A stretch of DNA of 64,000 nt, taken from a virus. This document shows positions 895 to 46,606 of this stretch, piece after piece (the first letter of the stretch is position 1; every line of letters starts with the position of its first letter). Made by a program: the position numbers and the translations under genes. The notes under the pieces were generated by a model. The model had not been told where the DNA came from. It saw only the letters and a list, made by a program, of their open reading frames with translations, and ran no database searches. The stretch lies in IMG/VR virus record IMGVR_UViG_3300046169_000069; one strand, written 5' to 3'.

Positions 895-3800
895 TTAGTG
901 ATGAAAGACTAGAGCATCATCTTCTGATTGCCAAGCAGGGTTTACTGATCCACCCGCATCTCTATATTCATCTGTGTATCGAATACCGATCGGTATATCC
1001 AACCAATCAAAAGTCTCACCACTGTGAGTAGCGGATAGGTTGACACTATAGTTACCTGAAGCTTCAGAAGTAATCGTGTTCACAAACTCTGTACCATAGT
1101 TCATAGTAACAGTACCCGTAGTAGACCATTCCGGACCAAATGTGTATGTTATTGGATAGTAGTGTGTGTTATGACCTTCTGGTCTTTCGATTCCGTAAGT
1201 TATGAATCTAACATCATGTTGAGTACCATTTACAGATGAATCCGTTTCAATATATATTGGTTGAACTGTTGCTTGACCTTCTTCTTCTGAGGTCATTTCT
1301 GGACTATATGGATAAAGTGCGTGGAAGTCTCGACCACTCTCCCAATATACGCCATCATGGGCGACAAGCTACAACGATACCTTCGTCTGTATCAACCGTC
1401 ATACGATCTCCAACAGGCAAGTCATAATTGAACGTGAGTGTTTGAATGATATCGCCAGCTGGTTCATACAAATCACCACCAAATGCCTCACTAGTAGGTG
1501 GAGACAATCTAATGTCCATCTCTACAGTACCAGTATATGGTGTGGATTCACTAACACCCGACATATCAGATTCAACTAGAATGAACCCTGTGCTACCCAT
1601 TTCGCCCCTTTCAGAGACCGATAAATTAGTTGCAAAACTGTCACCGACATGATCGTAGATTGTTTTGTTTCGAAGTACCGACACACCGTCACTTGTGTGA
1701 GACATGATCGGATCATTCGGATCATTATCATTAGGTATTTCATAATCGTTGATTTTTTTCAGGGTGCTTGTAATTCCAAATCTTTCTAGATAGTCAAAGA
1801 AGTTATTAGCTGGACCGTCAGTAAATTGTTGAATAGGTCTATCCAACCACTGACTAGTATGCACTAGAGTTCGTGTTCCAACATCCGTAGCGTTTACTTG
1901 AGAATAGACTTTCAACGATCCATCAAGGTGGAACTCAAGATTGAATCTGACTCCTCTAGGCTCCCAACCAGATGTACCTGACCACTCTCTACCCACATCG
2001 CGGCTACTTGCTGATATTGTTGGAACGGTCTCAGCGAAAAGCGAACTTATGTCTCTGACCTCATTGGTCTCGCTTCCGGTGTCGGTATTAGTTTCGCCGC
2101 CGGTGTCGGTATTAGTTTCGCCGCCGGTGTCGGTATTGGTCTCGTTACCAGCATCTGTTCCAGAATTCGGAGTCGTGCTAGAAGAGGTTGTAGTAGAACT
2201 TCCATTTCCACCAACTCCAGTCACTAACGATATTGTACGCAAATCTCTAATAGTAGGAGACTTAGAAGAGTTCTTAGCGTGCATAACAACTTTAACTTGG
2301 AACGCGGTAAACTGATCTAACTCTGCAGTATACTCGTACTGACGGAAGTTTTGGGGATTATCATCTTCTGGTAGAGGTTTATCTATTTCTACCTTAATCC
2401 AATTTGTGATAAAACTTCCACTGTTATCTGTAGTTAATAGTGCGTCTTCGTCTGCAGCAACCTTAACATATACTTCGAAATCAGAGCCTGGTGGACGATT
2501 CGCTGAGAACATAACCTTCAGAGATTTAGACGAATCGTTGATAGTCACTGCACTTGATATGTGTTGTGCTGCGTATCCAAATGTGGTATAATCAGGCGTA
2601 TCCGCCGTCGCGTTATAAACATCATAATCAACGACATTTTCTAGTGCAAGAACAGAAACTCTCTGTAGATCGATGACCGGAGAAACTTTAGTATCACTTG
2701 TCGTCATCTGAAGATTGAACTTCATTGTCTCATTACCACTCGCGTTCTCTGAAGAAGCGACGATGCTTGGTTCACCGTTTATGTTGTAGTCATTTAAGAA
2801 TACTTGACGTGCGTTCGCCAGACTACTTGGTAGACCATAACTGAACTGACCTAGACTACGACTGTCGTTAGAAGAGTTACCGCCATAAGACTTTGCCTTT
2901 GCATCGAATAGTTTTGCACTGACTCCTGTCTTGTTAGGAATGACACTTTGTATCTGCGGTATAAAACTATCATAGTATACTTGTTGTGATGCAACGACTG
3001 TATCACCACCACCGACACCTGACATAGGTGCAGACGCGGACACTTCAATTGTATATCCGTCCCAGTTCACACTCTTGATGTCAAATGTTCCGTTGAACTC
3101 TGAGGCAGCAACACCACCGATGGCATTCGCAACACCTGAGATCGCAACGTTGTCACCCCGACTGAAACCATGCCCTTCGTGATAGACCTTGACAGATGTA
3201 GAACCTGAAGTAGTCTCCAGTGGATCGGTTTTCAGTGCAACTTTTGGTAGAGGCGCATTGTCGAGAACTAACGCGCCCGATGTAGAGAAATCGGCTCTAT
3301 ATAGATCAAACATCAAATCTTTAGATTGATCTGGTGACCAAGTATATCCATTCTGTGACAAGAACAATGAACCAGCAGCCGCCTGTCGGGATACTTTATC
3401 TTCACGACTACCAACAACAAACTCATATGTTTCCGCAATGTATATGTTATACTCAACAGACTCACTGAGTATTGCTATAGCATACTCTTCGCCGCTTGTC
3501 AAGTAAATCGGTTCATCGAATTCTACGGTTGTTGCATTTTCCTGTACCTCTGACATAATAGTATCAGAACTGAAAGGAGTAACTGTTATGTCGGCTGGAT
3601 CAACAAAAGTGTTAGACCCTGGCACAATACGATTTGTTGGCACACCGCTTTCGACTGCACGAATCTGAACCTGCAGAGGTACAGTCGCATCTTTACTTTC
3701 TAGGTAAAGATTGACCTTGGTTAAGAATAGTCCGTTAGGGTTCTCTATTTGATCTACAAAGAACGTTTGTGCGAGCGGATCACTACGACCCCCATCTCTT

Positions 3801-6800
3801 TCAACTACGCGTGTGGTGCGAATGGTTTGTTGTACATCGTCAATAGAACCTGTTGATGAGTAAGATGCGCGAGCAGATACTGTTGATTCGTTTTCATTAT
3901 TAACGCTAACATCAAGTAATTTAAATTCTTGTTTTCCTGTACGGAACTTCAACGTATCTGTGTTAGGCAAGAAGAACGAACCAACCAGTTTTCCAGACCC
4001 ATCTGTCTGTAGTGCAGATGGTCCACCTAGATCAGTTGGGTACTCAGTCGCAGATGCGTACTGGCTTCCAAACTCTTGTGGGTCGTCTGCGAATCGTTGA
4101 GTCGTCGCTTCTTGACGTACCCAAGAACTTACATCTTTGTCACCGAAGAATGCGAACATCTTAGTATTAGGCCGCAGACCCCTAGCAACAAAGTTGATTC
4201 TACGAGAACGCATGTACGGAGTAACTTCTTCTCCTGCGACCTGTGTTCCCGCATAATCAAAGACAGTGAGGCTCATTGATGCATCTGCACCCGATATGTA
4301 TCCCGTCTGAGTGTATCCAAGAATACCAGCGCCGCCTCCTCCATAGTCCCACAAATCATCTCCATACTGATCTTGTATGTAACCATCACCAGTACGTTCA
4401 ATCGTTTGCATCTGTGGAGTTAAGTCTCGTGTTTCGATCCACTCATCCGAAGATGGTGATAGTTCCATCGTACCCACTTGACTTACAACTGCGAACGGGT
4501 TAACGTTCACAATGTTGGTGGCTAAATCCTGCAATATATGTGAGGTGCTGGTGAATGGTAGTGTCACCAAGTCGCCATTTTTCACGACAGCGTCAACGTT
4601 GTCCGAACTATAAGATAGTCGAACAGAGTTCTGACGGAAAGATGGTTTCAATTGACCAGTTGGATCTTGAGACGCTCGATAGTTAGGATTGTTGACATCC
4701 GAATAAAGATATGAGGTGAAATTATCAGCAACAATACCCGTCTTTATTATTTCCGCCCCAGTATCTGGATCTATGATAGGCAAGTTGACGGTAGCTGACT
4801 CTAGTAAGTTGAGTGTTGTAATTTCAAGATTTTCAATACGTTTCTCTAGTTCACCGATATCTTTCATAGTGAAACGTTTGTTTGGAATATAAACACTTGA
4901 TAAATCTGATCTATCAAAAGTATATGGGTTCAATCGGAACTTGTACATTGCCATTGAACCTGTAGGAATTTGTGGTTCACGTGGGCTGACCGCCGATTCT
5001 CCTTGAATGACTTGTAACTCACCAAACCCAATACCATCTCGACTGTCTATTGCGTTAGCGACAAGAATATCAATACGTGGTAGATAGTATTCAACATCAT
5101 CAATTGAAATTGCAGATGCGTTCTGAGGCAGTGGTGTCTTCACCACGAACTCACGTAAATATGGCCCTAAGAAATCTCTGGTAGGTCGGAAATCAAGTAC
5201 ATCAAGTAGACAGACAATTTGTCCCGAGACTGTCGTGTACTTCGGAATATCTTCGTATGCATCATCCACATAAGATGCTGCGCAGAAGTATCCTTCTTTA
5301 TCTTCGTGTGCATAATAATCATACACTACTTGTACGTCTTTGGCAACACCATCATAAGGAATTACGTATCCAGATTTCAGATATGCAACTGACCGATCAT
5401 AAAAGTTGTCTCTTTGACCACCATCAAAAGTGAACTGGTGTGTAATGTCTTCTGCATCGTCCCACGGGCCAGTTTCGGCTGATGGTCGATACTTAACCGA
5501 CTTCAACTTGATACCATCAACATAGTCCAAGAAAAGTGGACGACCTTGTTGATCGGATACAGTCACACTGCCGTATTCTACCGATTCTGTAAGCGTCTTT
5601 GATCGGGGAGTGATATTAGTCTTTTCTACGTAATATGCAATAGTATATGATTGACTAGGAGTGAGACCAGTATACTTACCAGTCATATCAGGACTTATCG
5701 ATAGGATCTCGCCAGCCTCTTCAGCGATTATCCACTGCGACTGTTCTACACCTGATAACGTAAGTTCACCAGCACCATCTGCTTGCGTAGTTGTTGTAAC
5801 CTGCGCAGTATAGTTTGCGGTGATGCTGTCTTTTGTCGGTGTCGTTCTTGGTAGTTCAAATAGTAGGCTATTATCAGCAGCTTCGTGAATAACGCTATCA
5901 ACCATAACGATCTGTGGGCTATTAGGGTCGAGTGTTGGGTCTTCTAAGATTGTCGCCTCAGAGAAACTGTGATAACCACCGCCCTGTTTAGGGTCCATGC
6001 GAATGTTAAAGATGTATAAACGAACGCCTGTCGAGTCACGCTGTACAGCACGTACGTTACAGTAACCAATGTAATCACCCGCAGATGATGTTCTTAGGCG
6101 TTGATGACCAAACGATGCAAGTCGGCCGAAACCTTGTGACCCTGAAGCGCCTTCTTCGATGTAAACATAGTTACCGAATGTCGCTGGTACAGGTTCGTTA
6201 AGTTTCTCTAGTGTATCTCGTGCCTTTGGTACAGTAATGTCCGTAGCACCGATGTCTAATCGATATCCATCTACATAAGCAATGCCTTCACTCACATCTA
6301 GGTTTAGATTGTCCGCATCCTTATCTTCAAAGATTGCAGTAAACTTTTCGACAACATAGTTACCTGACTCTTCTTTCGTTCGTTGAGCCATTAATTTATT
6401 GATTCGATTGTATGCATCAAAGTTAGACACTTCACGAGTGATTTTACCATCTACAATCCGTGCGATGAATATAAAATTGGACTCTTCTTCTGGAAACTCT
6501 ACGCGACGAGCATTAAACAACTCTCGCGTAGTAGGAATTAGTTTGATCTGATATCGATGTGCGCCAGGAGCAGTGTGATCCGGAACCTGTCCTTGATTGT
6601 CATAGAGCTGTTCGTCATCACCTTCTGTAACAATTTTCTGTTCTATTCTAAATCCAAAGTCTTCCTCTGGGGTATCACTGTACTTAGAAATAAAGGTGTC
6701 GCCTTTCTCTAAGTATACAAAGTGTCCCTGTATAAAAAAGTCTCCCGAAGAAAAGTGTGCTTTGGTTCCACGACCAGCAGCAGGAATAGGATCTGAACTG

Positions 6801-7273
6801 TCATCAATCACTTTTAAGTTGACAGATACATTATCTACACGGGTTATGATTTCTTGAGTTGATACGCGAGGCGCTTTTTCCGTATCGGTGACCGCAGAGG
6901 TATCTGTGTATTGGACATACAGAGTCTCTGGATCGGTGTTTGTGGCGGGAACGATTTCAACTATTTTAAATTCTATTGTCCCGTTGGTCAACGTCACGCC
7001 AAATAAATCAGGCGTCGTTACACTGACAGAGTCCAACCGAATATACTCGACCTTGTTGTTTACTGTCGCACCGCCCGGATTGACCATCGCACCTTCTTTA
7101 AAGATGTTCTGACCAAATCGTGCAATCTCTTCTTGAATGATTGTTTGTTGTTCAATTAATTCACGAGCTTGGAGCGCACGGCCGGAGTTGTATAGAACAC
7201 GATAGTAACCATCATTCGCATCATAAAAATCGCGATATGTTTCTCGAAACGTTTTGCTTGTAAAATCTGTCAT
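895..7273 (-). CDS. Giant virion structural protein, DUF4815/VrlC-like, with C-terminal extension (ORFs 1355-7273 and 895-1296 joined across an indel near 1370)
   Basis: N-terminus YYRVLYNSGRALQAREL..Q and motifs RTKEESGNY, YYLPRID, NKRFTMKDIG, DPLAQTF. The frame of 895-1296 stays open upstream (VAHDGVYWESGRDFHALYPYSPEMTSEE) into the end of the large ORF. Confidence 0.8.
2076..2147. repeat. 3 x 24-bp tandem repeat encoding a (ETNTDTGG)n linker
   Basis: ccggtgtcggtattagtttcgccg twice exactly plus one degenerate copy. Confidence 0.9.
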
Positions 7274-7281
7274 GATGTGTC

Positions 7282-8694
7282 CTATACGGTAATGACTATC
7301 TTAATGTCTTCTTTTTGTTCTTCGTGACGACGAATTCTTGAACGGTTCTCAATATATAGAACTTCTCCAGAAAACCGATCAATGGCATTTTCTAATGTTA
7401 CGGAAACGACTACGCCATATTCTGACGCACCTTCATTGGATATTCCTTCACCTGAGTTGCCATTCTCACCAATCAGAAACGGTTCAAATCCAGTAGATAG
7501 GTTTTGATGATAGTAAATTTCATTCCCAATTGAATCGTCTACATACGCTTTTGCACCAGAAGTCGTGCCCGTAATCAAAGTGCCTTTTGTGAAGGTTGAT
7601 GTCCCCACCAGTGTTATTGAAGGCAAGACTTTATCAGACGTGTTGATATAAGGAATTGGATCGCCTTCTGCATCCAAATCTAATGACAATGGATTTTTGA
7701 TAAGGCCCATTTGACGAAATGTATTATCAACAATAAATGTATCATTTACCGTTCCATCTGGTTTGGTATTGATCATTACAGAACTTGTTTTCAAATCATC
7801 TACTGGATCAAATCCAAGTCCTTTTTTGCTTGTAATAACAGGCTCTACCACAGAAGGTGTAGAACCACCAATTATTTCAAATGAGGCATACGTATATCCC
7901 GAACCATAGTTTGACATTTCTACCTTAACAAGATTTCCGTTCTCATCAATTACCGCTACTGCGGTTGCTCCATTACCATCACCATGAATATTAACTGTTG
8001 GGGGACTAGATTGGGAATATCCAGTCCCGGCTGTTACAAGTCTGGTACGAATAATTTCGCCTGGGATAGCAGTATCTCGTACGGTAATCTGTAGATCTTC
8101 GATAGAGTCTCCCGAAGGCAAATCTATCTCAGCTTTCTGCACAGGAATATGATTAGATGATAGGAATTGAAAAATGCGTTCCGGCGTTAGGGTGTATAAA
8201 AACTTCCATACATAACCGTCAGAAGTTATAAATGGTTTCCACCACTCACGCACATTATACATCGGTGCATTGGGGTCTGTCTCTGGACTCATTGGAGCAT
8301 GTAGTCCCCAGTTTGGTTCAACTGTAGATACTGCATCAGCTGGAGATATACATACATAAACTTCTTTTGCGTCATTTAAAACGTAGAATGGTGTCCAATT
8401 CTCATCAATATCAGACTTAACTGAATCGTCCCATCCAGCATAGGTGGAACCAGAAGACCAGTTCACGCGTCTAGCAACCATAGTAGATCCTTCGACCTTC
8501 TTGATCGACTGTAGGTTGTTTCTGAACTCGCGTTCTTCCCGTAAACAATCAACTGGATCAATCACAGAGTCGGCTTGATTAAAGGTATCACATTTACCGA
8601 TACCGATATAGTACTCATCGGAAGAATTTTGTATGTTTGATAGAAGATCTCGCGCCAGAGTTCTACTCATTGTTTGTCTTACTATAGCTGGCAT
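7282..8694 (-). CDS. gp8: Baseplate wedge subunit gp8
   Basis: YYIGIG, RRVNWSSG, FYVLND..VYVCI, DGYVWKFLY, FRQMGLIKNP, SGEVLYIENR..I.R..EQKEDIKIV. Confidence 0.9.
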   Translation of the reverse strand: MPAIVRQTMSRTLARDLLSNIQNSSDEYYIGIGKCDTFNQADSVIDPVDCLREEREFRNNLQSIKKVEGSTMVARRVNWSSGSTYAGWDDSVKSDIDENWTPFYVLNDAKEVYVCISPADAVSTVEPNWGLHAPMSPETDPNAPMYNVREWWKPFITSDGYVWKFLYTLTPERIFQFLSSNHIPVQKAEIDLPSGDSIEDLQITVRDTAIPGEIIRTRLVTAGTGYSQSSPPTVNIHGDGNGATAVAVIDENGNLVKVEMSNYGSGYTYASFEIIGGSTPSVVEPVITSKKGLGFDPVDDLKTSSVMINTKPDGTVNDTFIVDNTFRQMGLIKNPLSLDLDAEGDPIPYINTSDKVLPSITLVGTSTFTKGTLITGTTSGAKAYVDDSIGNEIYYHQNLSTGFEPFLIGENGNSGEGISNEGASEYGVVVSVTLENAIDRFSGEVLYIENRSRIRRHEEQKEDIKIVITV

Positions 8695-8725: not shown

Positions 8726-8733
8726 TATTTATA
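8726..8733 (-). promoter_or_regulatory. T4-type late promoter TATAAATA upstream of gp8
   Basis: Exact TATAAATA in the intergenic gap. Confidence 0.8.
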
Positions 8734-8739
8734 ATGGTT

Positions 8740-9618
8740 TTAAGAGTCTCTTAGAAAATTATTTAACCACACTTCTTTTTGGTGGTGAGACATCAAAAGG
8801 TCTTTATAGATTACTGGAAGTTCGTAGGGACTACTTCTATAATGATTGACATGACGCAAGGCCTCTTCTCGCAAAGGAGTTAGGTACTCATTGTAGTCAT
8901 GAACTTTTTGTGCGCTACCTTCTGTTGTTCTATCAATACAATAGAAATCGCTTGACATCGATAAGAAATAACAAAGGTTTCCCTTTTGGTGTTCTGCCAA
9001 AAGTTTATATGTGTATGCATGATCTTCGCCATTACCTATATCTACATTGAATCTATGTTCAGCCGACTTTCTACTTTGAAGAATAATAAAGTCTATTGAG
9101 ACTGGACTTTCTTCTGTGAACAGATGACTGACTTGAGGACCCATACTAGGTTTGGGAGCGCACATAGAAGTTCCCCATACACTCGCATGATATTTTTCAT
9201 TTACCCACCAATAGTGGCCCGACTCTAAGGCATAGTCACATATACAATCACATGGCACCACGCCTAGGACATCTATGCAAGGGAAGTGTTTGATGTGGTT
9301 ATACAAAGACTGTAAATAAGACGGATATAAAAAATCGTCTCCGTCCATTTGTGATACGTAATCTGCATCACTCTCTAAGAATACTTCTAGACACGCGTTC
9401 TTTCCCATTCCTGGCTTGCCATTACTTTCGGTGTTTACAACGCGAAATGGTAGGTTGAGTGCGCATACATCTTCGTAGTATCCTTCATGAATACTATTAA
9501 CTACTACAACGACTTCCCACTCTATAGGAGATATTTTCACAACACCTTGTGCGGATTTTACTAATCGTACTAGTTTAGGAATATCATTAGATGTCAATAG
9601 GGTTGTCAATAATTTCAT
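8740..9618 (-). CDS. GT-A fold glycosyltransferase (family 2-like)
   Basis: EVVVVVN, SNGKPGMGKN, DYVSQMDGDDFLYP (DxD), GEDH. Confidence 0.8.
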   Translation of the reverse strand: MKLLTTLLTSNDIPKLVRLVKSAQGVVKISPIEWEVVVVVNSIHEGYYEDVCALNLPFRVVNTESNGKPGMGKNACLEVFLESDADYVSQMDGDDFLYPSYLQSLYNHIKHFPCIDVLGVVPCDCICDYALESGHYWWVNEKYHASVWGTSMCAPKPSMGPQVSHLFTEESPVSIDFIILQSRKSAEHRFNVDIGNGEDHAYTYKLLAEHQKGNLCYFLSMSSDFYCIDRTTEGSAQKVHDYNEYLTPLREEALRHVNHYRSSPYELPVIYKDLLMSHHQKEVWLNNFLRDS

Positions 9619-9620
9619 AA

Positions 9621-10175
9621 TTACTCCGCATGAAAAAAGAAGGTCTGGAACAGTCGGCCGTTGTGTTTATCGGTTCCAAATCCAGGCAATACACTACGAT
9701 GGTAATACATAGAATCGTAAATGACTATCCTATTATAAACATTCTTTGCTTCTGCGACGATCTCCCAATCGGATTCTAAAAACTCAAACTCATTGAAGTC
9801 GACCGCAGCGTCTGGGCTATGTCGCATGATGCCAGTAGGACCATGTCGATATATCGCAGTGCCGGAGTCTAGAGGAGCGTCGGGTGTTAAGTATATGACC
9901 GCAGCGTGTGACATCTCATCATGGTGAACCCAAGTCCGAGAATCTTCTGTGGTATACTGAAAGGAAGTGTTATAACTATCAGTAGGAAACTGAGTTATCT
10001 TTTTTCCTATGATTGATTGAAAGTTTTCAATTAGGTGATCGTGATAACCACCATCGTTGGAACACGGTTGTGTTCTCCAGCCGGGATAGTTTCCGGAAAC
10101 ATTAAACTCTTGACTAAGAGCGTATTCTCTAACAGCATCTGGGTTAGAGTAAAAGTCTTCAATTATAGTAAACAT
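9621..10175 (-). CDS. 2OG-Fe(II) oxygenase (DUF6445-like)
   Basis: IEDFYSNPDAVREYAL..NYPGWRT, WVHHD (HxD), AAVIYLTPDAP..SGT, YNRIVIY, YHRS, GRLFQTFF. Confidence 0.8.
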   Translation of the reverse strand: MFTIIEDFYSNPDAVREYALSQEFNVSGNYPGWRTQPCSNDGGYHDHLIENFQSIIGKKITQFPTDSYNTSFQYTTEDSRTWVHHDEMSHAAVIYLTPDAPLDSGTAIYRHGPTGIMRHSPDAAVDFNEFEFLESDWEIVAEAKNVYNRIVIYDSMYYHRSVLPGFGTDKHNGRLFQTFFFHAE

Positions 10176-10194
10176 TATATACCTGTAGTTGGAA

Positions 10195-10212
10195 CCCCCT
10201 CTTGCGAGGGGG
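10195..10212 (-). terminator. GC-rich stem-loop with GCAA tetraloop and no U-tract
   Basis: Minus strand CCCCCUC-GCAA-GAGGGGG followed by UUCCAAC. Confidence 0.55.
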
Positions 10213-10218
10213 AATAAA

Positions 10219-12990
10219 TTAGTTTATCTTACCAATCTTCACCCTCAATGCGTTGGAGTTGTCAAAAATGTCTATAGACGTTGACGAAAACTCAATTCGT
10301 TCATTGGGTGGTGTCCCTGTATTTAGGAGACCACTCATATCAATAAATCCTTGGTTGTTCGTCAACTCTGTGAAGTCAGCGGTTGATGTTCCTGTTATAT
10401 TCTGAGTAGATCTATACACTCGACCCGAATTAATATGCCACCAAACGTCGCCAACAAAAATCTTATCTACTGTACGGAATTGTTTAATTCCTGCAGAAGC
10501 GGTTGCGTTTACATTTGATGGAAACGTAGTAGACGTGTTGAACAACACTGCGTTACCGAATCCACCAACTGGGCCCTGTTGACCAGTTATACCCGCAACA
10601 CCCGTAACGCCCTGTGGTCCATCTGCTCCAGTGGCGCCTTGTTTTCCGGTAGCGCCTTGTTGTCCAGTAGCGCCGGTAGCACCGTCTGGTCCAGTAACAC
10701 CGTCTGGTCCAGTAACACCTTGTTTTCCTTGAGGGCCTTGTTTTCCGGTAGCGCCTTGTTTTCCGGTAAGCGCCGGTAGCACCGTCTGGTCCAGTGATAC
10801 CCTGTTTTCCAGTGGGGGCCCTGTGGTCCATCTGCTCCAGTACCGCCTTGTTTTCCAGTGGGGCCCCTGTGGCCCATCTGCTCCGTGGCACCCTGTTTTC
10901 CGGTAGCGCCTTGTTGTCCAGTAGCGCCGGTAGCACCGTCTGGTCCAGTACCGCCTTGTTTTCCAGTGGGGCCCTGTGGCCCATTATTACCAGTTTGCCC
11001 TTGAATGCCCTGTCTACCTTGAGGGCCTTGTGAACCTTGTGGGCCGTTGTTTCCGGTTTGCCCTTGAATGCCCTGTCTACCTTGAGGTCCTTGTGAACCT
11101 TGGGGACCATTGTTACCTGTCTGTCCTTGGATGCCCTGTCTACCTTGAGGTCCTTGTGAACCTTGTGGCCCATTATTACCTGTCTGGCCCTGAATACCTT
11201 GGGCACCAGTATTACCTTGAGCGCCTTGTGGGCCGTTGTTTCCGGTTTGTCCTGTTATGCCTTGAACGCCCTGAGAACCCTGTGCTCCTTGTGGCCCATT
11301 ATTACCTGTCTGTCCTGTTATGCCTTGAACACCTTGAACACCTTGTGGTCCCTGTGGACCATTATTACCTGTCTGGCCTGTTATGCCCTGAACACCTTGA
11401 ACACCTTGAGGACCCTGTGGTCCATTGTTTCCGGTTTGACCTTGCAGACCTTGTGCTCCAGTATTACCCTGAGCCCCTTGTGGTCCATTATTACCAGTCT
11501 GTCCTTGCAGACCTTGTGGTCCGGTATTGCCTTGAGATCCTTGTGGGCCATTATTACCAGTCTGACCCTGAAGTCCTTGTGGACCAGTACTACCTTGAGA
11601 TCCTTGTGGGCCATTATTACCAGTCTGACCCTGAATACCTTGAACGCCTTGTGCTCCTTGAGGGCCCGGTTCTCCCGTCAATCCTTGAGGGCCAGGTTCA
11701 CCTGTGTTACCGATAGGACCCTGTGGGCCTGGCGTGGTACCCGCTGGTCCCTGAGGGCCCGGATCGCCTGTGTTACCGATAGGGCCCTGTGGGCCTGGCG
11801 TGGTACCCGCTGGTCCTTTAGGGCCCGGATCGCCCGTATTTCCAGTTGGACCATGTGGACCAGTTATACCCTGTATTCCTTGAACACCTTGTGGGCCTGG
11901 TGGGCCCGGATTACCTGTCAGTCCAGTTAGGCCTTGGGCGCCTTGTGGACCTTGAATACCAACTCCGCCTGGATTTCCTGTCAGTCCTTGTGGACCTGCT
12001 CCGCCGGTTGCACCTTGGGCACCAACCTCGCCTGGGTTTCCCTGTAATCCCAAAGGTCCAGTATTTCCTTGTGGTCCTTGAGCACCAACCTCGCCTGGGT
12101 TTCCGGTTAGACCAGTGGTTCCCGTTGCGCCTTGAACACCTTGCGGTCCAACTTCGCCCGGATTACCTGTCAATCCAGTTATACCCTGAGAACCCTGTGG
12201 CCCTTGTGCTCCAACTTCGCCTGGGTTTCCAGTAAGACCCGTTATACCCTGAGAACCTTGTGGTCCTTGAGCACCAACCTCGCCTGGATTTCCTGTAAGA
12301 CCTGTTATGCCTTGAGGACCCTGATTACCTTGAGGACCAACTTCGCCGGGATTTCCCGTCAATCCAGTTATACCCTGCGGTCCTTGATTACCTTGAGGAC
12401 CAACTTCGCCTGGATTTCCTGTAAGACCTGTTATGCCTTGTGGTCCCTGATTACCCTGCGGGCCAACTTCGCCTGGATTTCCGGTGAGGCCCGTTATACC
12501 CTGTGGTCCCTGATTACCCTGCGGGCCAACACCGCCTGGGTTTCCGGTTAAACCCGTTATGCCTTGAGGACCCTGAATACCTTGAGGTCCTATCGGACCA
12601 AATCCACCTTGGCCGCCAAGAGGGACCCTGCATTCCGATTGGTCCCTGCGGGCCAACACCGCCAATCTCAGAGTTGTCAATAAGGTCATTGATATCTTGA
12701 ATTTCTTGGACCAACCCGCCGATTTGGGTATCATGTCCCCCGACACGAACGTCAAGCAAATTAATAGCATGAGTGTTTGCAACGACTTCGTCTAATGTAA
12801 CGCCATCAAAAGCACTGTCTATAGAGTCAGTCACATACTTAGATAGAAACTCTAAGGACATGCCCTCTTCTAATTTTGTGATTTCATAAAGTTCTAGAAA
12901 GTTAGCATTAATCTTTTCACTAGCTTCGCGAAGCGTATCGCCTTTACCGTCGTTTGCTGATTGACCCGTGTTTAGAATTTTTCTTGTCAT
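10219..12990 (-). CDS. Collagen-like tail fibre with gp9/gp10-type N-terminal attachment domain (indels near 12625 and 10770-10890)
   Basis: N-terminus [29 protein letters not shown]; about 2.1 kb of Gly-X-Y; C-terminus GDVWW...[18 protein letters not shown]; pieces lie in several frames. Confidence 0.85.
10560..12665 (-). repeat. Gly-X-Y repeat region with 54-63 bp higher-order tandem units
   Basis: ([21 protein letters not shown])n, ([21 protein letters not shown])n, ([21 protein letters not shown])n. Confidence 0.95.
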
Positions 12991-12991
12991 T

Positions 12992-13942
12992 TTATCCGCC
13001 GTGTTGTTCTGTGTCTAGATATTCGTATGATTGTGAGAGATCTAATGTACCATCATCTAGTGTGGGTGGTCGGACGCCTGCCCAATTCGCGACTGTAGTA
13101 AAGTCGTCTGATATTTGTTGCAATGTAATTGTTTCGTACTTGTCAAGAGTTTCAAGTGAACTGACAATGATGCCTGTACCATCGTCTTTCTGCGATTGTG
13201 TACGTGCATCTACCGGATCGTTCTCTTCCATAACGAGTAGAACATAACTTGGTTCAAAACTCATATGTCCAGTGGACTCAAGTACAACTGGATAATTTGG
13301 TGGTTCTAGTGGATCAGTAGTGATCCCCGACATAAGTTCTAAGTCAGCCGAACCTTGAGTGACCGTTTCACCCGCTAAGTAGAATCCCGCTGGGTGAACC
13401 ATCTTCTTATATAGTTCTTCGTAGTCTCCAAAAGACATACCCGTTTTCAAAAGAATCGAGAAAATCTGATATCTTCGGTCGTCCTGAATACGTTTCAATG
13501 ATTGTGGTCCAATCAAAGAACCGCCTGGTTTATCGTTAAGAATGAAGATATCACGTTTAGGATAGATGACTTCTACTTCTTCACCATAAAACGCCTCAAA
13601 GAATTGTTCTACAGAAAGTTGTGTGCCCTTCGCACGATAGAACTGCGAAAGAAGTTTCGCCATAAACCGTGGATCTGCATTTGGATTTGCAGCAAATGAT
13701 TCGGTATCAAGTCCATCACTAATTTCTCTTATCAACAGATCTAGGTTTTTTAGATCCGTAGAGGAGATATTGCGCAAATCAAATAATTTTTCTATCTCTG
13801 GCGATTCCGTCTCATCAGCCGCAAAGTTATAGTAACCCTTTAAAAACTTAATTAATTCGGGGTACTGACTCTTAAAGAAATCCGGCAGTACCTGAGTTAC
13901 TTTGGCCTGATGAAACTTGAGGTTGGTTCGACGATCGGACAT
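12992..13942 (-). CDS. gp7: Baseplate wedge initiator gp7-like (short form)
   Basis: VLPDFFKSQYPELIKFLKGYY, FYRAKGT, YQIFSILLK, KKMVHPAGF; follows gp6. Confidence 0.75.
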   Translation of the reverse strand: MSDRRTNLKFHQAKVTQVLPDFFKSQYPELIKFLKGYYNFAADETESPEIEKLFDLRNISSTDLKNLDLLIREISDGLDTESFAANPNADPRFMAKLLSQFYRAKGTQLSVEQFFEAFYGEEVEVIYPKRDIFILNDKPGGSLIGPQSLKRIQDDRRYQIFSILLKTGMSFGDYEELYKKMVHPAGFYLAGETVTQGSADLELMSGITTDPLEPPNYPVVLESTGHMSFEPSYVLLVMEENDPVDARTQSQKDDGTGIIVSSLETLDKYETITLQQISDDFTTVANWAGVRPPTLDDGTLDLSQSYEYLDTEQHGG

Positions 13943-15786
13943 TACAATGTAACCTTAATTTCACCCGTATCGATTCTGGACATAACGCTTGACACTTCCT
14001 CATCAAGTGTTATAATATAGTTACGTAAAGGAGTGACCTGTACTTTGATTTGCTGGAGTTGCACTAATCTTAATATCACTGCCCACAAAACCATCCTTAT
14101 CCACCAATAAAGAATTTATTTTTACTTGACCAAGGCCTGGGTCATAACTACCGACATTTGAAATCTTAACTACGTCGTTTAGATCTACCATTTGTAACTG
14201 AGTAGATCCTAATTTATTTTTAATAACGAAATACTGTCCGTTTGATTTGAAAATAGATGACGTTACTGTGTAGTCATCCTTGTCTGGTTGAGCAAGATAG
14301 ACAGGGAAGTTTACCACATGATCCGACTCGTAGTATGTGTCAAAGTCTTCTGGTAAAACGCCGTTGTCTTCTAGTTGTTTTTCTTTTATTTCAATCAATC
14401 CCTGTATGTCAATGCGTTGTTGCATACGAACCGTCATTCGAGAGTTTAAGATGGCTGGAGATAGATTATCAATTTGCGTCAATAAATTAGAACGACGGAA
14501 TGTTGCATCGAACGTGTTTAGTTCGTTTCGGACATAGGCGTTAATCAATGATTTAACATCGGTCTCTAATGATTGAGATTGAGTTACCTTAAAGGGATCA
14601 ATGTTAAACTTTGTTTGAAGTTCTAGATATGTCTTTTGTGGATCTACAAATTCTAAATCAATAGACATGATAGAAAGGTTCGCAGCCAATTCTTGACGAA
14701 TATTGTTCTTCTCTGTCACAATCACTTCGTCACTGACGTTATCTCTAAAGTTTAAACTGACGAACACCTTACCGTATTGTGGTGGCAAATTATCGTTGCC
14801 TCCCCACGAAATCACATCACGAACATAGTTTGAATATCGAGCTTGAATTAAAAGCTCGGTAGTCGTCTGCGGTCACTAAACGATTCTGTGCAGCATATGC
14901 GCGAGGTGCATTTAATTTAATAGAGTTTAAAGACTCTCTTTCCGATCCGCCAGCGGATGGTGATAATGTAGTTACTACAACATCGTCTAAGTCGTTCGGG
15001 GTAAACTTTTGTGCTCCATTACCATTTAAGTGATTTGTTGAAATATATGACACTTCAATAACATTGCCTCGTACTGGGCGTTTTCCTAATACATTGCCAT
15101 CACTAAAGGTAATGTCATAATATCCATTAGGAGTTTCATTTACCATGTATATTGTTGAATCGTCATTAATGGTAGTAACAGTTTGAATATCATGATAAGC
15201 TACAAAGTTTGGCGAGGTAGCATTGTCCTTCACCTTAACAGATATGGTCGAGGTGTCAATATTCTCATCTTGAATAACATAACTCACATTGTCTGCATCG
15301 TTAGCAAAAAATGTTCTTTTATTCATTTTACCTTCGACAATCTGCACATTTTCAAAAATAAATGTATTGTCTTGAGATATATCTACCGTATACGGTTCTA
15401 TTGTCAAAAACTGATAACCAATATCATCAATACTGGATAAAAACATTGTTCCTTTGTTTAAAGTAAATGTAGCTGGAGGATTTTCTATTGTTAACTCAAC
15501 CCTTATCGTGGCGCGAGCCGCTGTGCGAGACTTCACAGAATACCCTAAAAGCTTCTGCGTGTCCGATTACCGAGGCGCGTATCTGAGAAGTTGTTAGAAA
15601 AGATTCGTTAATGGCCAAGTTTGCTATCAACGCATTGATATGCGTGTTATATGATAAGACATCTAGGATATTAGATAATCCACTCGCATTAAAATCATAA
15701 TCTTCAAACTCACCACTGCTTCTAAGGTAAGTTTTTAATTTGGACTTGATGTCACTAAAATCTAAATTAGATGTGTTGATTGTCAT
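13942..15786 (-). CDS. gp6: Baseplate wedge subunit gp6 (split by about 3 indels)
   Basis: LDFSDIKSKLKTYL..EFEDYDFNASGLSNILDVLSYNTH, ESLNSIKLNAPRAYAAQNRLVTADDY, WGG.DN.PPQYGKVFVS. Confidence 0.9.
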
Positions 15787-16248: not shown

Positions 16249-16256
16249 TATTTATA
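16249..16256 (-). promoter_or_regulatory. Late promoter TATAAATA upstream of gp25
   Basis: Exact motif overlapping the upstream stop codon. Confidence 0.8.
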
Positions 16257-42480: not shown

Positions 42481-43467
42481 TTAGTCCCTATAATCGTTAA
42501 GTGTAAAGTTTGTTCCGTGCATCTTCATTAAATCTCTCTCGTGATTGGTGTAAACCAATACTTCTGGATCATCAATGAGGAAGTCACAGTTTTTACAGAA
42601 GTCTGGATAGTCCCCTGTACGATGTTGTTCACGAAGTTTTTCGTACTCTTCACCAAAGAAGATATCTAAGATGTTATCTTCTGAACAGTGACCAAGTACG
42701 GCCTCTTCATCGCGACCTAGAACCTGACAACACGGGTGAACCGCACCCGTCTCGCCTTCTAGACCACCGGCACGAATTACTACATCGGGCGAGAACGGAC
42801 GACCACAAGTCTTTACTTGTCCCTGTCGTGCGTTGTCTCCGATATCCCATGCGCCAGACCAGTTGTGCATCTTCCAGATCTCTGTCTTGACGCCCAACTC
42901 CTCGACTAACGCTTTATATTTAGTGAGTTCCTCATCTATCTTTTCGTTGTCGGTGATTAAGTGATAGGTAGACACTACGCAATCTGCGCCTGTCTCATTT
43001 ACATAGGAAACCATTTCCTGAATGTTGCGCTTGATCTGCGCGTAGTGCCCACCTACAGCATTGTACATCCACTTGGTATAGTCTTGTTCGTCTGCACCAA
43101 TGAATGAAAACCGATAGAAGTCCAGTCCCGCGTCTACACAGTCGCGCATGTACTGACCTTCCATTTTAAATCCGTTAGAGAAGATGAACGCCTTTGCGCC
43201 ATACTTCTTACATATCTTAATATACTCAGGCAAGTTCTTAGCCATCGTCGCCTCGCCTGACCCATCTAAGTTGACTACGTTCAGGCCATACTGTGCGCAG
43301 TCAGCGACGTACTTCTCAAACTCATCCACTTTCATGATGCGCCGAAACCCTTTGTGGCGGCCGCCCTCACGTAGATCTTGTGGACACATAGAACACGAGT
43401 AGTTACATCCCCCCGCTACCTCAATCACGGCACGGTCAATTTGAAATGTTTCTCTAGTCATTTCCAT
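42481..43467 (-). CDS. Radical SAM protein with SPASM/Twitch domain
   Basis: CNYSCSMC (CxxxCxxC), GSGEA, C-terminal CGRPF...VHPCC...CKNC. Confidence 0.92.
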   Translation of the reverse strand: MEMTRETFQIDRAVIEVAGGCNYSCSMCPQDLREGGRHKGFRRIMKVDEFEKYVADCAQYGLNVVNLDGSGEATMAKNLPEYIKICKKYGAKAFIFSNGFKMEGQYMRDCVDAGLDFYRFSFIGADEQDYTKWMYNAVGGHYAQIKRNIQEMVSYVNETGADCVVSTYHLITDNEKIDEELTKYKALVEELGVKTEIWKMHNWSGAWDIGDNARQGQVKTCGRPFSPDVVIRAGGLEGETGAVHPCCQVLGRDEEAVLGHCSEDNILDIFFGEEYEKLREQHRTGDYPDFCKNCDFLIDDPEVLVYTNHERDLMKMHGTNFTLNDYRD

Positions 43468-44338
43468 AGTATTGATTCATCCTATTCTCATAGTCAACTG
43501 CTTTATTCTTTGCGTGACCTAATAGATCACCTGTATGTTCTAACCACCACCAAACGTTACGATCGTCATAGTGCGTCTCAGGGTTCAACCTAAGCGCATT
43601 AGGTGTATGGTATTTAGTCACGCCTTCACCACTGATTACGGCGAGAGGTCGCGCAAAGTTCTTCGCGACATAATGCCAAATCCCGTCGTAACAAATCACC
43701 ATCCGTGCAGTAGAGATAAGGTGCATTGCTTCAGATGCTGGTGTACGATACGATAGTTCGTGTAACTCGAACCCCATCGCCTTGAAGTGTATAATCAACT
43801 GTTCCCAGTCTTCGTTATCGAACAACCGTTTCCATGTGCGAGGTTTCTCTGCGTTCCATGTCGGCCGCCAGAACACGATACGTTTGGGGGCGTACTCTTG
43901 AAACGCATCTTGCCGAAAGATCCAATCGTTGTTCGGCGCAGGGGATCCCCGATCGTCTTTGTAGTATCCTGATTGAAACCAGAACCTATTCTTGGGCCCG
44001 TGAGAGTTTATAGCTGCTATTCTACGTTCACCATTCGACTCCAAAACAACATCATCGTCAAACTTCCAATCACGGTATCGGCCGTTCGCGTTAAAGATGT
44101 GATGTATCTCTACGCGATCTTGTTGGTGGTAGAAGTTGTGGATGTAGTCACATCGTTCGATGATCGTCTCAGGATCTTCGAAGTGATGAAGATAGTCTGG
44201 TCCGTGTTCCCAATGAAGTTCTAGATTGATCTTTCGGACATTATGATCAGCCGCGTAACGATGGCAGGCATTGAGTGCCCACATAAAATCACCGACGCCT
44301 GGGGTACCGCGCCAGGTAACGAGCTCGGACGGTTTCAT
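43454..44338 (-). CDS. GT-B/heptosyltransferase-like protein
   Basis: GVGDF..ALN, W..L, ISTARMVICYDGIWHYVA. Confidence 0.5.
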   Translation of the reverse strand: MKPSELVTWRGTPGVGDFMWALNACHRYAADHNVRKINLELHWEHGPDYLHHFEDPETIIERCDYIHNFYHQQDRVEIHHIFNANGRYRDWKFDDDVVLESNGERRIAAINSHGPKNRFWFQSGYYKDDRGSPAPNNDWIFRQDAFQEYAPKRIVFWRPTWNAEKPRTWKRLFDNEDWEQLIIHFKAMGFELHELSYRTPASEAMHLISTARMVICYDGIWHYVAKNFARPLAVISGEGVTKYHTPNALRLNPETHYDDRNVWWWLEHTGDLLGHAKNKAVDYENRMNQYYGND

Positions 44339-44673
44339 TAATTCGTCTTAATACTCTTGACTTTACGTGCTGAACCTGTAGACGTGTACAGACCAAACCA
44401 TGCAGCCCCCGCACCGACTACGACAGAGATAAGACCTGCCTGTGACGCGTTAGGCTCTGGTAGAGACATAAACCACTGAGTTGTCTGTATGAGCAGGTAC
44501 AGATAAGTACCAATGAATGCACGAGGGAATAATCTGTATGCATCAATTACGTCTGCGAATTGTAGTAGGGACTCGAATTTATTATATTCCGGCGCCTTCT
44601 GAGTTGTATCTAACTCAATCTCTACTTGCAGTTTCTTTTTCTCTACTACTGGTACTGCTGCTTCTTCTGTCAT
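44338..44673 (-). CDS. Two-TM membrane protein (holin-like)
   Basis: DAYRLFPR, WFMSLPEP..SQAGLISVVVGAGAAWFGLY. Confidence 0.65.
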   Translation of the reverse strand: MTEEAAVPVVEKKKLQVEIELDTTQKAPEYNKFESLLQFADVIDAYRLFPRAFIGTYLYLLIQTTQWFMSLPEPNASQAGLISVVVGAGAAWFGLYTSTGSARKVKSIKTN

Positions 44674-44943
44674 TTAGCTAAACCTTTTTTGTATCCATTT
44701 ATATATGGCATATATTGAAAGACCATAAAACGCAAGTACACTCATTGGTAGACCGATATAGATCAACTCCCACGGGTGAAGAAACAACAACTCCCACGAA
44801 AGATCTACGATTGCCTGTACGTCACTTGTTCTAGAAACATCTGACATATCCATGGCAAGATCATATTCTTCAACTATGCCATTCCATGTGTCGATGTCCA
44901 TACAGACCAGATCGTCTGGGCAGATAAATTCTTCTTCCATCAC
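44674..44943 (-). CDS. Small membrane protein
   Basis: Acidic N-terminus with C-terminal TM. Confidence 0.6.
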   Translation of the reverse strand: MMEEEFICPDDLVCMDIDTWNGIVEEYDLAMDMSDVSRTSDVQAIVDLSWELLFLHPWELIYIGLPMSVLAFYGLSIYAIYKWIQKRFS

Positions 44944-45134
44944 TTTGCCTTGAAATCTTTCGGATCACCGTTGATCAGTTCTTTAGCTTTTGTTTCCCAG
45001 ATCCAAGGGCACAAACCGTGTACAAAAGAAACAAAAGAGATTGTCCAAGCCCGTCGTAGATGTTCGAAATAACCCAATTCAATCTCTTTCAGATGTTTGG
45101 TCAGAAAACCTTTACGTCGTATTTTTGTTGCCAT
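44940..45134 (-). CDS. DUF6356-like small protein
   Basis: HLKE...YFEHLRRAW....VHGLCP; true start may be internal. Confidence 0.55.
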   Translation of the reverse strand: MATKIRRKGFLTKHLKEIELGYFEHLRRAWTISFVSFVHGLCPWIWETKAKELINGDPKDFKAK

Positions 45135-46606
45135 AATTCTGCGTCGTGTTCGTCGTTGACCATTGGTCGACCACGTATGTTTAAACTAGTATTTAGTAAC
45201 ATTGGCACGCCGGTACGATCATAATATTCTTCGATGACCTTGCGGAACACCGACTCGCAATCCTTGCGCACAATCTGTACTCGTGCAGTACCGTCCACAT
45301 GTGTGACGGGTGCATAGTCATGCTTCGCCCACGAAGTAAACTGCATGTGTTCGTTCATCGGACCATCGAAATACTCCTCTGCATATTCCTCTAGGATTGC
45401 AGGAGCAAATGGACGGTACTTCTGACGACGTTTGATCGTATTGACCGTGTCCTGTACGTCGAATCTTACATCAGCGATAAGAGATCGGTTGCCAAGAGCT
45501 CTAGGGCCAAACTCAGCCCTTCCATTAGCAATGCCACAATACTTATGTTCAAGTAGATGGTCAACGACAGCACTGGGATCAATAGGATTGGTAATATCAT
45601 ATCCCGCATATGGACTCCAAATAAGTTTATCTTTACCTGTTGCTTTTGCCCATGAACGTGCGGCAGTACCTAGACCTGAACCAGCGTCCGTTGGTGATAC
45701 TGCAATGTGCACTTCGTCAAACAACTCAAACAAACGCGAGTTGATTACGACGTTCTGTGCGCACCCCCCAGAGTAACACAACTTCTTACCATATTTAGAC
45801 GCCTCGCGCATTATACCCATGATCGCGTAGTCTGCAAAGTCTTGGACCGCACGTGCCGCAACTTTATCTTCTACCGAAAGAACGCGTCTCTGGTATTCTT
45901 TACGAAACTGCAGTCTATCTTGTTCACGTTTAGACTCATAACCACCGACCGCAACACCCATTGCAACTTCTGGTGCGATGTCTTCTAGGTTGTCATACCA
46001 ATTGATCAACCAATTAGTGAGTTCCATAGACCTTTCATCGGTGTCGTGATAAGCAGACAGCCCCATTACGACATATTCGTCTTCAAGGGGACGTAGTCCC
46101 AAGAACTTGGTGACCATTGTATATGCAAGACCGACCGACTTAGGGTAGTGCCACTCTTTGATTAAATTGAACTTGTGGTCCATGATGCAGGCGGTCTGCA
46201 ACTCACCAACACCATCGATAGAGACTAGGACAGTATCTTCAGATGAATCCCACGGACGCGTGTAGAACGCAGAAGCGCAGTGCGACTCGTGATGTAGATG
46301 ATGTGCGTCGTAGACTGACGCTTCTGGATAGGGGAACTGTTCAAACGCTTCAGAAAATCTAATGCTTTCTGGGTTTCTAGCTGTACCTTCCACTCCGCCA
46401 CGTATATCAAACTTAACGACATGGTCTTCATAGAAAGACACATGGTCATCATCATTTATCATATCCCATAATACATCGGGTATGTTAGCGTCGTTTTTCT
46501 TTTTGGAGTATCGTTCTCCGTGCGTAGCAAATTCTACAACGCCATCTTCATTGATGATCGCTAAGCCTGCGTCGTGATAGAATTCGCTGTAACCTACGTA
46601 TCTCAT
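45101..46606 (-). CDS. O-carbamoyltransferase (NodU/CmcH/TobZ family)
   Basis: HDAG, ERYSKKKND, HHESH.ASAFY, IDGVGE, YSGGCAQN, DAG..LG, EFGPRALGNRS, RPFAP, HVDGTARVQ, LLNTSLN. Confidence 0.95.
   Translation of the reverse strand: MRYVGYSEFYHDAGLAIINEDGVVEFATHGERYSKKKNDANIPDVLWDMINDDDHVSFYEDHVVKFDIRGGVEGTARNPESIRFSEAFEQFPYPEASVYDAHHLHHESHCASAFYTRPWDSSEDTVLVSIDGVGELQTACIMDHKFNLIKEWHYPKSVGLAYTMVTKFLGLRPLEDEYVVMGLSAYHDTDERSMELTNWLINWYDNLEDIAPEVAMGVAVGGYESKREQDRLQFRKEYQRRVLSVEDKVAARAVQDFADYAIMGIMREASKYGKKLCYSGGCAQNVVINSRLFELFDEVHIAVSPTDAGSGLGTAARSWAKATGKDKLIWSPYAGYDITNPIDPSAVVDHLLEHKYCGIANGRAEFGPRALGNRSLIADVRFDVQDTVNTIKRRQKYRPFAPAILEEYAEEYFDGPMNEHMQFTSWAKHDYAPVTHVDGTARVQIVRKDCESVFRKVIEEYYDRTGVPMLLNTSLNIRGRPMVNDEHDAELWQQKYDVKVF

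Follow-up and report, generated by a model that had tools for sequence, protein, structure and literature searches.

A collagen-rod baseplate fibre followed by a DUF6445 oxygenase and a glycosyltransferase in a marine T4-like phage: a candidate fibre-modification module

Why would a phage place two enzyme genes directly behind the gene for a baseplate fibre? The question is raised by IMG/VR virus record IMGVR_UViG_3300046169_000069, of which a stretch of 64,000 nucleotides (the window) was analysed. In this marine, T4-like phage a fibre gene with long Gly-X-Y collagen repeats is followed by genes for an oxygenase and a glycosyltransferase (GT), and the original prediction, made from the sequence alone, was that the two enzymes hydroxylate and/or glycosylate the neighbouring fibre. 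This was followed up by comparison of sequences, predicted structures and gene neighbourhoods. Coordinates are those of the window, and all genes of the module are on the minus strand:

10219..12990 (-), collagen-rod baseplate fibre gene, divided over three open reading frames (ORFs) in three frames, 12990-12514, 12782-10587 and 10782-10219
12871..12990 (-), gp9/gp10-type baseplate anchor, fibre residues 1-40 (PF07880 T4_gp9_10_N; phrog_677)
10549..12650 (-), Gly-X-Y region of ~237 triplets, ~711 residues
10219..10560 (-), non-collagen C-terminal domain (tip) of 113 aa, with the motifs D-V-W-W-H-I and RVKIG
9621..10175 (-), DUF6445 Fe(II)/2-oxoglutarate (2OG) oxygenase, 184 aa (PF20043, E 1.7e-12)
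8740..9618 (-), GT2-type GT-A glycosyltransferase, 292 aa (PF00535, 26.4 bits, cut-off 23.3)

The fibre, the HxD...H...R oxygenase and the DxD GT-A enzyme all lie where they had been predicted, in the same orientation, with gaps of 43 bp between fibre and oxygenase and 2 bp between oxygenase and GT. The length of the repeat region agrees with the roughly 700 residues originally claimed; its longest unbroken runs measure 273 and 282 residues and, together with a match to PF01391 Collagen (54.8 bits), place the protein in the collagen-repeat family. Position X of the rod is occupied mainly by Pro (28%), Asn (14%) and Ala (11%) and position Y by Gln (44%), Thr (28%) and Pro (7%), and GKQ occurs eight times, which bears out the composition noted earlier. 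If it forms a triple helix, the rod would be roughly 200 nm long. The anchor is assigned from a marginal PF07880 score (25.1 bits against a cut-off of 25), the match to phrog_677 (E 4e-11) and the position of the gene between wedge genes.

The trio is best explained as a mobile fibre module of aquatic viruses, in which a collagen-rod fibre with a C-terminally conserved tip is combined with two enzymes dedicated to its tailoring. The evidence that carries this explanation comes in the first place from the same genomic slot in relatives. A scan anchored on the GT yielded 53 loci (GT 74-87% identical), and the order wedge protein, collagen fibre, DUF6445, GT, gp8 was found in every locus of sufficient length. 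A second scan was anchored on gp8, dereplicated on gp8 to 40 loci, and the traits were mapped on a gp8 tree. Modifying enzymes followed all 23 collagen rods and none of the 17 non-collagen fibres; co-occurrence in these 40 loci is perfect, and the enzymes are tied to the collagen fibre well above what chance would give. On the tree, both traits changed at least five times and always together (five of five independent pairs; sign test p = 0.0625, which is the floor for n = 5), and the cassette type changed at least 12 times.

Collagen rods in the slot were accompanied by DUF6445 and GT2, by DUF6445 only (L073 and L074, where the GT is absent from the slot), by a PF05159 Capsule_synth enzyme, by a 2OG-FeII_Oxy_4 oxygenase together with an MptE-like/methyltransferase protein, or by the latter protein only. 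Three non-homologous enzyme sets are thus associated with collagen rods in one and the same slot. The non-collagen states were coiled-coil rods with nothing, another type of fibre with a tail-fibre assembly chaperone, and short gp9-like proteins with nothing. The nearest relatives have such a coiled-coil rod. These are G001, an IMG/VR record, and C48C1 (Kyanoviridae), a distant relative and the only one found by nucleotide search of the phage collection. Their slot fibres have the N-terminus of the window's fibre and its final RVKIG motif, with rods of the coiled-coil type (1291 aa in G001, L004:5384-9259; 1568 aa in C48C1, L001:7377-12083). The fibre gene adjoins gp8 with zero genes between, and neither a collagen gene nor a DUF6445 gene is present anywhere in the two genomes. 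The coiled-coil fibres are themselves built of long, near-identical tandem units with recurring motifs such as SKITEFS..LTYEQQGVAA..LVSDAKDELRSEIRTD.

Exchange of the rod with its enzymes can be seen where backbones are near-identical and carry different rod and enzyme sets (L029 vs L066; L012 vs L095/L096; L005/L007 vs L100). The reverse is found in L005-L008, where the module is 85-89% identical to that of the window and gp8 only 46-48%, which argues for lateral movement under strong constraint. Identities of the module genes do not follow the backbone, and those of colC and the GT are correlated with each other (Spearman 0.68). The gp9/gp10-type anchor stays with the phage backbone, and rod, tip, DUF6445 and GT2 travel together. 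Judged from these comparisons, the fibre slot itself is ancestral, and what was swapped in is limited to rod, tip and enzyme pair. The idea of a bounded insert therefore holds for these parts; it does not extend to the slot, since in relatives this is occupied by a fibre of non-collagen type on the same anchor.

The alternative cassettes come with rods of a different composition. One of them (L086-L088, L095, L096, L113; e.g. L087:8008-9934) combines a collagen in which Thr is abundant in X and Arg in Y with a 2OG-FeII_Oxy_4 enzyme and a protein of 420-440 aa with MptE-like and methyltransferase parts; the MptE-like part resembles Maf flagellin glycosyltransferases, with scores below the Pfam cut-off. 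The same protein is the sole enzyme in L094 and L101. A third cassette (L066:7528-8565, L100:8955-9953) has an X-Thr-rich collagen followed by a PF05159 enzyme (KpsC/KpsS-like), on backbones nearly identical to some that carry DUF6445 and GT2. Rods of the DUF6445 type contain 5.6-20% Asn and 10-40% Ala in X; the other rods contain 21-36% Thr in X and 12-23% Arg in Y, and X-Asn in the other cassette types is 0.5-4.8%.

The association is not confined to this slot, as rod, tip and enzyme pair are shared between unrelated backbones and occur in at least five other contexts. The tip domain is 48-88% identical across all DUF6445 + GT2 modules and could be aligned over six contexts, with the consensus D-[VI]-[YW]-W-H ... 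RVK[IL]G. More distant DUF6445 + GT2 pairs (GT 47-53% identical) again adjoin collagen proteins: in L143 and L148 pair and collagen are beside replication genes, in L147 the pair follows a 1941-aa protein with 306 triplets, in L149 it is part of a tail region of siphovirus-like type that includes Dit and BppU genes, and in L146 two DUF6445 genes and a GT are found between two giant proteins. One of these giants (L146:9986-16792, 2268 aa, downstream of the DUF6445-GT-DUF6445 cluster) has 252 Gly-X-Y triplets that are almost all GLQ or GLI, and it is essentially free of Pro.

The two enzymes are also found fused, with at least 17 protein clusters of GT2-DUF6445 fusions; other DUF6445 fusions add methyltransferase, GT17 or RXYLT1 domains. 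A metagenome-assembled genome (MAG) of a giant virus, named Satyrvirus at NCBI, has a 744-aa collagen gene followed directly by a gene for a 585-aa GT2-DUF6445 fusion (L151:619-4662), of which the DUF6445 part is 44% identical to that of the window. This collagen has 183 triplets, with Ser (30%), Pro (21%) and Asn (17%) in X and Gln (74%) in Y, and three DUF7275 paralogues are encoded nearby. The giant-virus origin of the fusion is provisional, since the binning of the MAG could be wrong.

Are the two proteins what they were taken for? The 184-aa protein scores 48.2 bits against PF20043, twice the curated cut-off of 24, and this is its sole Pfam match at E <= 0.01; PF13640 and related families of prolyl 4-hydroxylase (P4H) type did not match. 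The iron-binding HxD...H triad (H84, D86, H159) and R174 in GRLFQTFFF, the basic residue that binds the C5-carboxylate of 2OG, are invariant in 40 homologues (44-89% identity). An AlphaFold (AF2) model with a pLDDT confidence score of 95.8 has the double-stranded beta-helix fold, with Z scores of 13.9-9.2 to 50 solved 2OG oxygenases. The best matches are OGFOD1 (Z 13.9), Trichoplax PHD (13.3), Pseudomonas PPHD (13.1) and Tpa1 (12.3), each of the four being a prolyl hydroxylase of proteins or closely homologous to such an enzyme. Collagen-modifying enzymes score lower, i.e. PBCV-1 vCPH 11.6, mimivirus L230 11.2, C-P4H-II (a collagen P4H, C-P4H) 11.0 and LH3 10.6. The comparison with prolyl and lysyl hydroxylases that had been suggested thus supports a prolyl-hydroxylase-like fold for the modelled DUF6445 protein.

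The GT keeps a DxD motif (D92-G93-D94-D95) that is invariant in 42 homologues, so that catalytic residues are kept in both enzymes. Its model (pLDDT 94.5) resembles K4CP (Z 16.1), TarS (15.1) and SpsA (15.0), as well as CgT and TarP; protein GalNAc-transferases score 13.5-13.8 and mimivirus R699 11.2. The structural matches of the two enzymes include PDB entries 6ax6 and 9dyt, which we take to be mimivirus collagen-modification enzymes. Foldseek/VIA searches with the GT model gave generic GT2 enzymes at the top and collagen GTs far down, and no indication of the acceptor. No cultured phage in the collection carries the GT, as the best match in the search of cultured-phage proteins covered only 29%.

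From the slot counts, the recurrence in other contexts, the fusions and the fold, it appears probable that the two enzymes modify the fibre protein, so the functional link at the heart of the prediction is supported; the residues that it proposed are another matter, to which we return below. The process could be envisaged as follows. Late in infection, DUF6445 would hydroxylate side chains of newly made fibre chains, after which the GT-A enzyme would move a sugar from a host nucleotide-sugar to the new hydroxyl group or to a Thr in position Y. Such modification would probably serve to stabilise a triple helix that is poor in hydroxyproline or to shield it from proteases, or else to coat the fibre with sugars and so tune host recognition.

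The position of the enzymes within the late baseplate operon can be judged from the surrounding features, listed here from upstream to downstream along the minus strand, together with the breaks in the fibre gene:

about 13945-15786 (-), gp6, in four frame pieces
12992..13942 (-), baseplate wedge protein of 316 aa, directly upstream of the fibre (PF23786 Baseplate_wedge, E 3.1e-18)
12618..12624 (-), first frame break (+1), within ccctctt; frame 0 ends with GMQGPS and frame 2 takes over
10768..10885 (-), four more single-base breaks, ~10884-10885 (-1), 10864-10867 (+1), 10814-10818 (+1, C5 run) and 10768-10769 (+1)
10195..10212 (-), GC-rich hairpin CCCCCUC-GCAA-GAGGGGG, 7 bp with a GCAA loop, after the stop codon of the fibre gene and ahead of the oxygenase gene
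8726-8733 (-), T4-type late promoter TATAAATA, 32 nt before the gp8 start, marking where the module ends downstream
7282..8694 (-), baseplate wedge protein gp8, the first backbone gene after the module (phrog_438, E 2.3e-75; PF09215)
1355-7273 (-), DUF4815/VrlC-type protein of 1972 aa, downstream of gp8

The gene order is gp6, the 316-aa wedge protein, fibre, DUF6445, GT2, gp8 and the DUF4815/VrlC-type protein. The gene upstream of the fibre had been called gp7, which must be corrected: it encodes the PF23786 wedge protein, 72-78% identical to the product of the same-position gene in G001 and C48C1, and in this phage group the role of gp7 was ascribed to VrlC/DUF4815 (PMC7029224). The late promoter in front of gp8 was rightly recognised. 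Its sequence occurs 12 times in the window as compared to 2.4 expected, and the nearest upstream late promoter on the same strand is at 16249-16256. A search for sigma-70-like promoters ahead of the enzymes gave nothing convincing: the region scanned had 22 sites where 15 +/- 3.2 would be expected, and the 43-nt gap had none. Both observations suggest that the enzymes are read within the late baseplate operon.

The hairpin between fibre and oxygenase was considered as a classical terminator and rejected, because a T-run is absent and folding of the whole 66-nt stretch (-15.9 kcal/mol) gives a z of only -1.27; it would be an attenuator or a stabiliser at most. Hairpins of differing sequence, with GC-rich tetraloops, are found at this junction in about half of the related loci (L005, L007, L013, L017, L040, L047, L074), and they may act as attenuators or mRNA stabilisers. 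Elsewhere in the window (42481-46606, minus strand), genes for a radical SAM/SPASM protein (328 aa), an unassigned 294-aa protein and a carbamoyltransferase (501 aa) are arranged in tandem, and these could form a small cluster of modification genes that has nothing to do with the fibre.

The collagen fibre is thus present as predicted, but not as a single ORF, since it runs through three frames with five single-base indels in the assembly. These have a net effect of +3, four of them are crowded into 120 nt close to the 3' end, and most are in short homopolymers; the positions near the 3' end were placed by comparing adjoining repeat units and ORF frames. Nearly all of the 53 relatives have an intact single fibre ORF of 900-1430 aa at the same place, and gp6, which is 613 aa in relatives, is broken in the window as well, into pieces in frames -2, -3, -1 and -2 that imply three indels. 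For both reasons the five breaks in the collagen gene are probably errors of assembly and not biology, and this part of the assembly as a whole probably contains indels that were left uncorrected. Programmed frameshifting and pseudogenisation are unlikely, with relatives nearly all intact and an essential gene like gp6 also affected. In L014:3404-3979 the DUF6445 gene is apparently frame-shifted, with its N-terminal part in an 'intergenic' stretch and with collagen and GT intact.

Which residues could be modified? The prediction had pointed to Pro in position Y and to Lys, and neither survives comparison of the partner collagens. Y-position Pro, the site of C-P4H and vCPH, varies from 8.2% down to 0.3% in 15 partner collagens, the minimum being one in 303 triplets (L040), and was rejected as a conserved target since it is nearly absent from several of them. 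Lys, the target of enzymes of the PLOD or L230 type, was rejected because it is absent from four partner collagens that have the same enzymes: Y-Lys is 0% in L010, L038, L046 and L143, and X-Lys is 0% in all intact relatives, so that only the window has X-Lys. With few exceptions, the collagens linked to DUF6445 have in common X-Pro (9-44%), X-Asn (5.6-20%), Y-Gln and Y-Thr (3.9-20%). Pro in X (G-P-Q) or Asn in X would most likely be the hydroxylation sites, as no other residue that can be hydroxylated is present in nearly every partner collagen. The modelled fold favours Pro, and the enrichment that is specific for this cassette type favours Asn. That X-Pro or X-Asn is hydroxylated and then glycosylated, in that order, is possible but doubtful. 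A wider scheme can be put forward tentatively. In phages of aquatic habitats and in one or more lineages of giant viruses, tailoring based on DUF6445, an oxygenase without sequence relationship to the P4H and PLOD enzymes that is coupled or fused to a GT, would act on X-Pro or X-Asn of Gln-rich, hydroxyproline-poor collagens, a chemistry not described before. Different, non-homologous enzyme sets would be matched to collagen 'codes', with DUF6445 + GT2 for rods of the Asn/Ala type and Maf-like or Kps-like transferases for rods of the Thr/Arg type, and exchangeable rod-plus-enzyme cassettes would set the sugar coat of the fibre.

Several observations weigh against enzymes dedicated to the fibre. 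DUF6445 members of 44-54% identity occur without a collagen gene within 8-9 kb (L061, L144, L145), in L061 as a DUF6445 + GT pair within a sugar-enzyme cluster, and GT orthologues of 44-45% identity are found alone, beside RNase H. Since Syn9, S-SSM7 and HTVC008M have a distant DUF6445 (up to 37% identity) and no collagen gene in the genome, dedication of DUF6445 as a whole to collagen is not supported. In the GLQ/GLI collagen of L146, both Pro and Asn are missing from the seven residues most often found in X. For the modelled GT, the fold is generic for GT2 and carries no information on the acceptor. Just five independent transitions could be counted in the slot, and rod, tip and enzymes are physically linked, with the tip co-varying with the enzymes as the rod does, so that co-inheritance alone could yield part of the pattern. 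Finally, oxygenases that tailor small molecules or sugars (PolD, PasI, SnoK, HygX, EvdO) score just 1-3 Z units below the prolyl hydroxylases.

Such oxygenases also figure in the alternative that survives best, although it is unlikely: the GT2 enzyme would glycosylate the fibre on Y-position Thr or on the tip, and DUF6445 would tailor the sugar, as donor or after transfer, instead of the protein. PolD (Z 12.3), PasI (11.6), HygX (10.8), AviO1 (10.8) and EvdO2 (10.5) come near the protein hydroxylases, DUF6445 has fusion partners from three GT families as well as methyltransferases, it is located in sugar-enzyme clusters of L061 and S-SSM7, and Y-Thr is present in every partner collagen (3.9-20%). 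However, a sugar-tailoring enzyme is difficult to reconcile with L073 and L074, where collagen and DUF6445 occur without a GT in the slot, and the four top fold matches act on, or are close to enzymes that act on, prolyl residues of proteins.

Since the tip accompanies DUF6445 and GT2 in all aligned contexts, the tip, which is the probable receptor-binding end, could be the substrate instead of the collagen rod. Its sequence contains much Asn, Thr and Ser (FNTS, NATAS), and the correlation between colC and GT identities would also fit. We consider this quite improbable; the Satyrvirus collagen and the L146 proteins have different ends, yet DUF6445 and GT are kept, three unrelated enzyme sets accompany collagen rods with different tips, and the coiled-coil fibres that end in RVKIG have no enzymes.

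Modification of the rod can further be set against the published reading of such genes. In a pelagimyophage study, collagen repeats were noted in structural proteins, a plastic region that splits the baseplate module was described, and the GTs of pelagimyophages and cyanomyophages were taken as modifiers of the host lipopolysaccharide (LPS) (PMC7029224). On such a reading, the present enzymes might remodel host surface glycans (LPS, O-antigen, capsule), e.g. to block superinfection, and merely be located in a plastic spot of the baseplate region. The nearest GT structures do include the wall-teichoic-acid and polysaccharide enzymes TarP, TarS and K4CP, and one alternative cassette has an enzyme of a capsule-synthesis family. 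Such a role is nevertheless very improbable: one would not expect it to leave all 17 slots with a non-collagen rod without enzymes, to use late-operon genes that have no promoter of their own, or to bring the same pair behind collagen genes in unrelated phage types and a giant-virus MAG. The absence of any functional link, with enzymes that hitch-hike as recombination moves the whole block, can hardly be the case, for although rod, tip and enzymes are adjacent with a history separate from the backbone and the sign test is based on just five transitions, the same association exists for three non-homologous enzyme sets and recurs beside differently organised collagen genes, GT2-DUF6445 fusions occur, the catalytic residues never vary and conservation is higher in the enzymes than in the backbone.

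If the fibre is indeed the substrate of the two enzymes, the uncharacterised family DUF6445, of which no mention was found in a literature search, would obtain a substrate. Virus-encoded collagen modification would be extended beyond mimivirus, to tailed phages of a kind often found in marine metagenomes, it would follow that bacterial-type collagens are sometimes modified, and the default interpretation of phage GTs near fibre genes as LPS remodelling enzymes (PMC7029224) would be challenged. The small size of the enzymes (184 and 292 aa) would make them attractive for tailoring of recombinant collagen. Upon co-expression of the three genes, G-P-Q or G-N-x triplets would be predicted to show +16 Da and to carry sugar adducts. 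A literature search gave no description of collagen fibres of phages that come with tailoring enzymes of their own; matches for phage collagen with hydroxylase were reviews or the remark, in a Baltic virome study, that the use of a viral prolyl 4-hydroxylase is 'cryptic' (PMC9301287), and the literature on jumbo phages and phage G contained nothing relevant. Virus-encoded tailoring of collagen is already known, and as far as these comparisons go the DUF6445-based phage form of it appears to be new.

How does the module compare with systems that have been studied? Bacillus BclA and the cuticle collagen of Riftia carry glycosylated Thr in Gly-X-Thr. These are hydroxyproline-poor collagens with Thr-linked sugars, which is reminiscent of the 28% Thr in position Y of the window's rod, but no oxygenase is involved there and Y-Thr is as low as 4% in some of the partner collagens described here. 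In work by Freeman et al. 2023, mycobacteriophage-encoded glycosyltransferases reportedly glycosylate virion proteins. There too, phage GT genes are located beside structural genes and virion proteins receive a sugar coat, with the difference that the targets are capsid and tail-tube proteins and that neither an oxygenase nor a collagen takes part.

Pathways in which a hydroxylase is followed by a glycosyltransferase are known from LH3 and COLGALT1, which act on hydroxylysine of animal collagen, from O-glycosylation of hydroxyproline in plants, and from PhyA and Gnt1, which act on Skp1. The coupling of a 2OG hydroxylase to a GT-A enzyme is the same, and is expressed here in 2-bp or overlapping junctions and in fusions; the enzymes, however, belong to other families, and the order and the residue are putative here. 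With the prolyl hydroxylases (OGFOD1/Tpa1, PHD2/EGLN, PPHD, vCPH, algal and animal C-P4H), DUF6445 shares the HxD...H...R centre and a fold that aligns over 141-159 residues at Z 13.9 to 11.0. It differs from them by an identity of only 12-18%, a much smaller size (184 aa) and the lack of a P4H or 2OG-FeII_Oxy_3 Pfam match, and from C-P4H also because the Y-Pro site of that enzyme is almost absent from several DUF6445 partner collagens.

The system that comes closest is that of mimivirus, in which L230, a bifunctional lysyl hydroxylase and glucosyltransferase, is accompanied by R699. Both viruses encode collagen-like proteins, a 2OG hydroxylase and a GT-A transferase. The oxygenase described here is nevertheless DUF6445 and not of the PLOD type, with a Z score of 11.2 to L230 against 13.9 to OGFOD1. 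The phage further differs in that its host is a bacterium and its collagen forms a baseplate fibre, and four of the partner collagens have no Lys. Among the fused forms of DUF6445 are some with the GT at the N-terminus and the oxygenase at the C-terminus, an order of domains that is shared with L230 and LH3.

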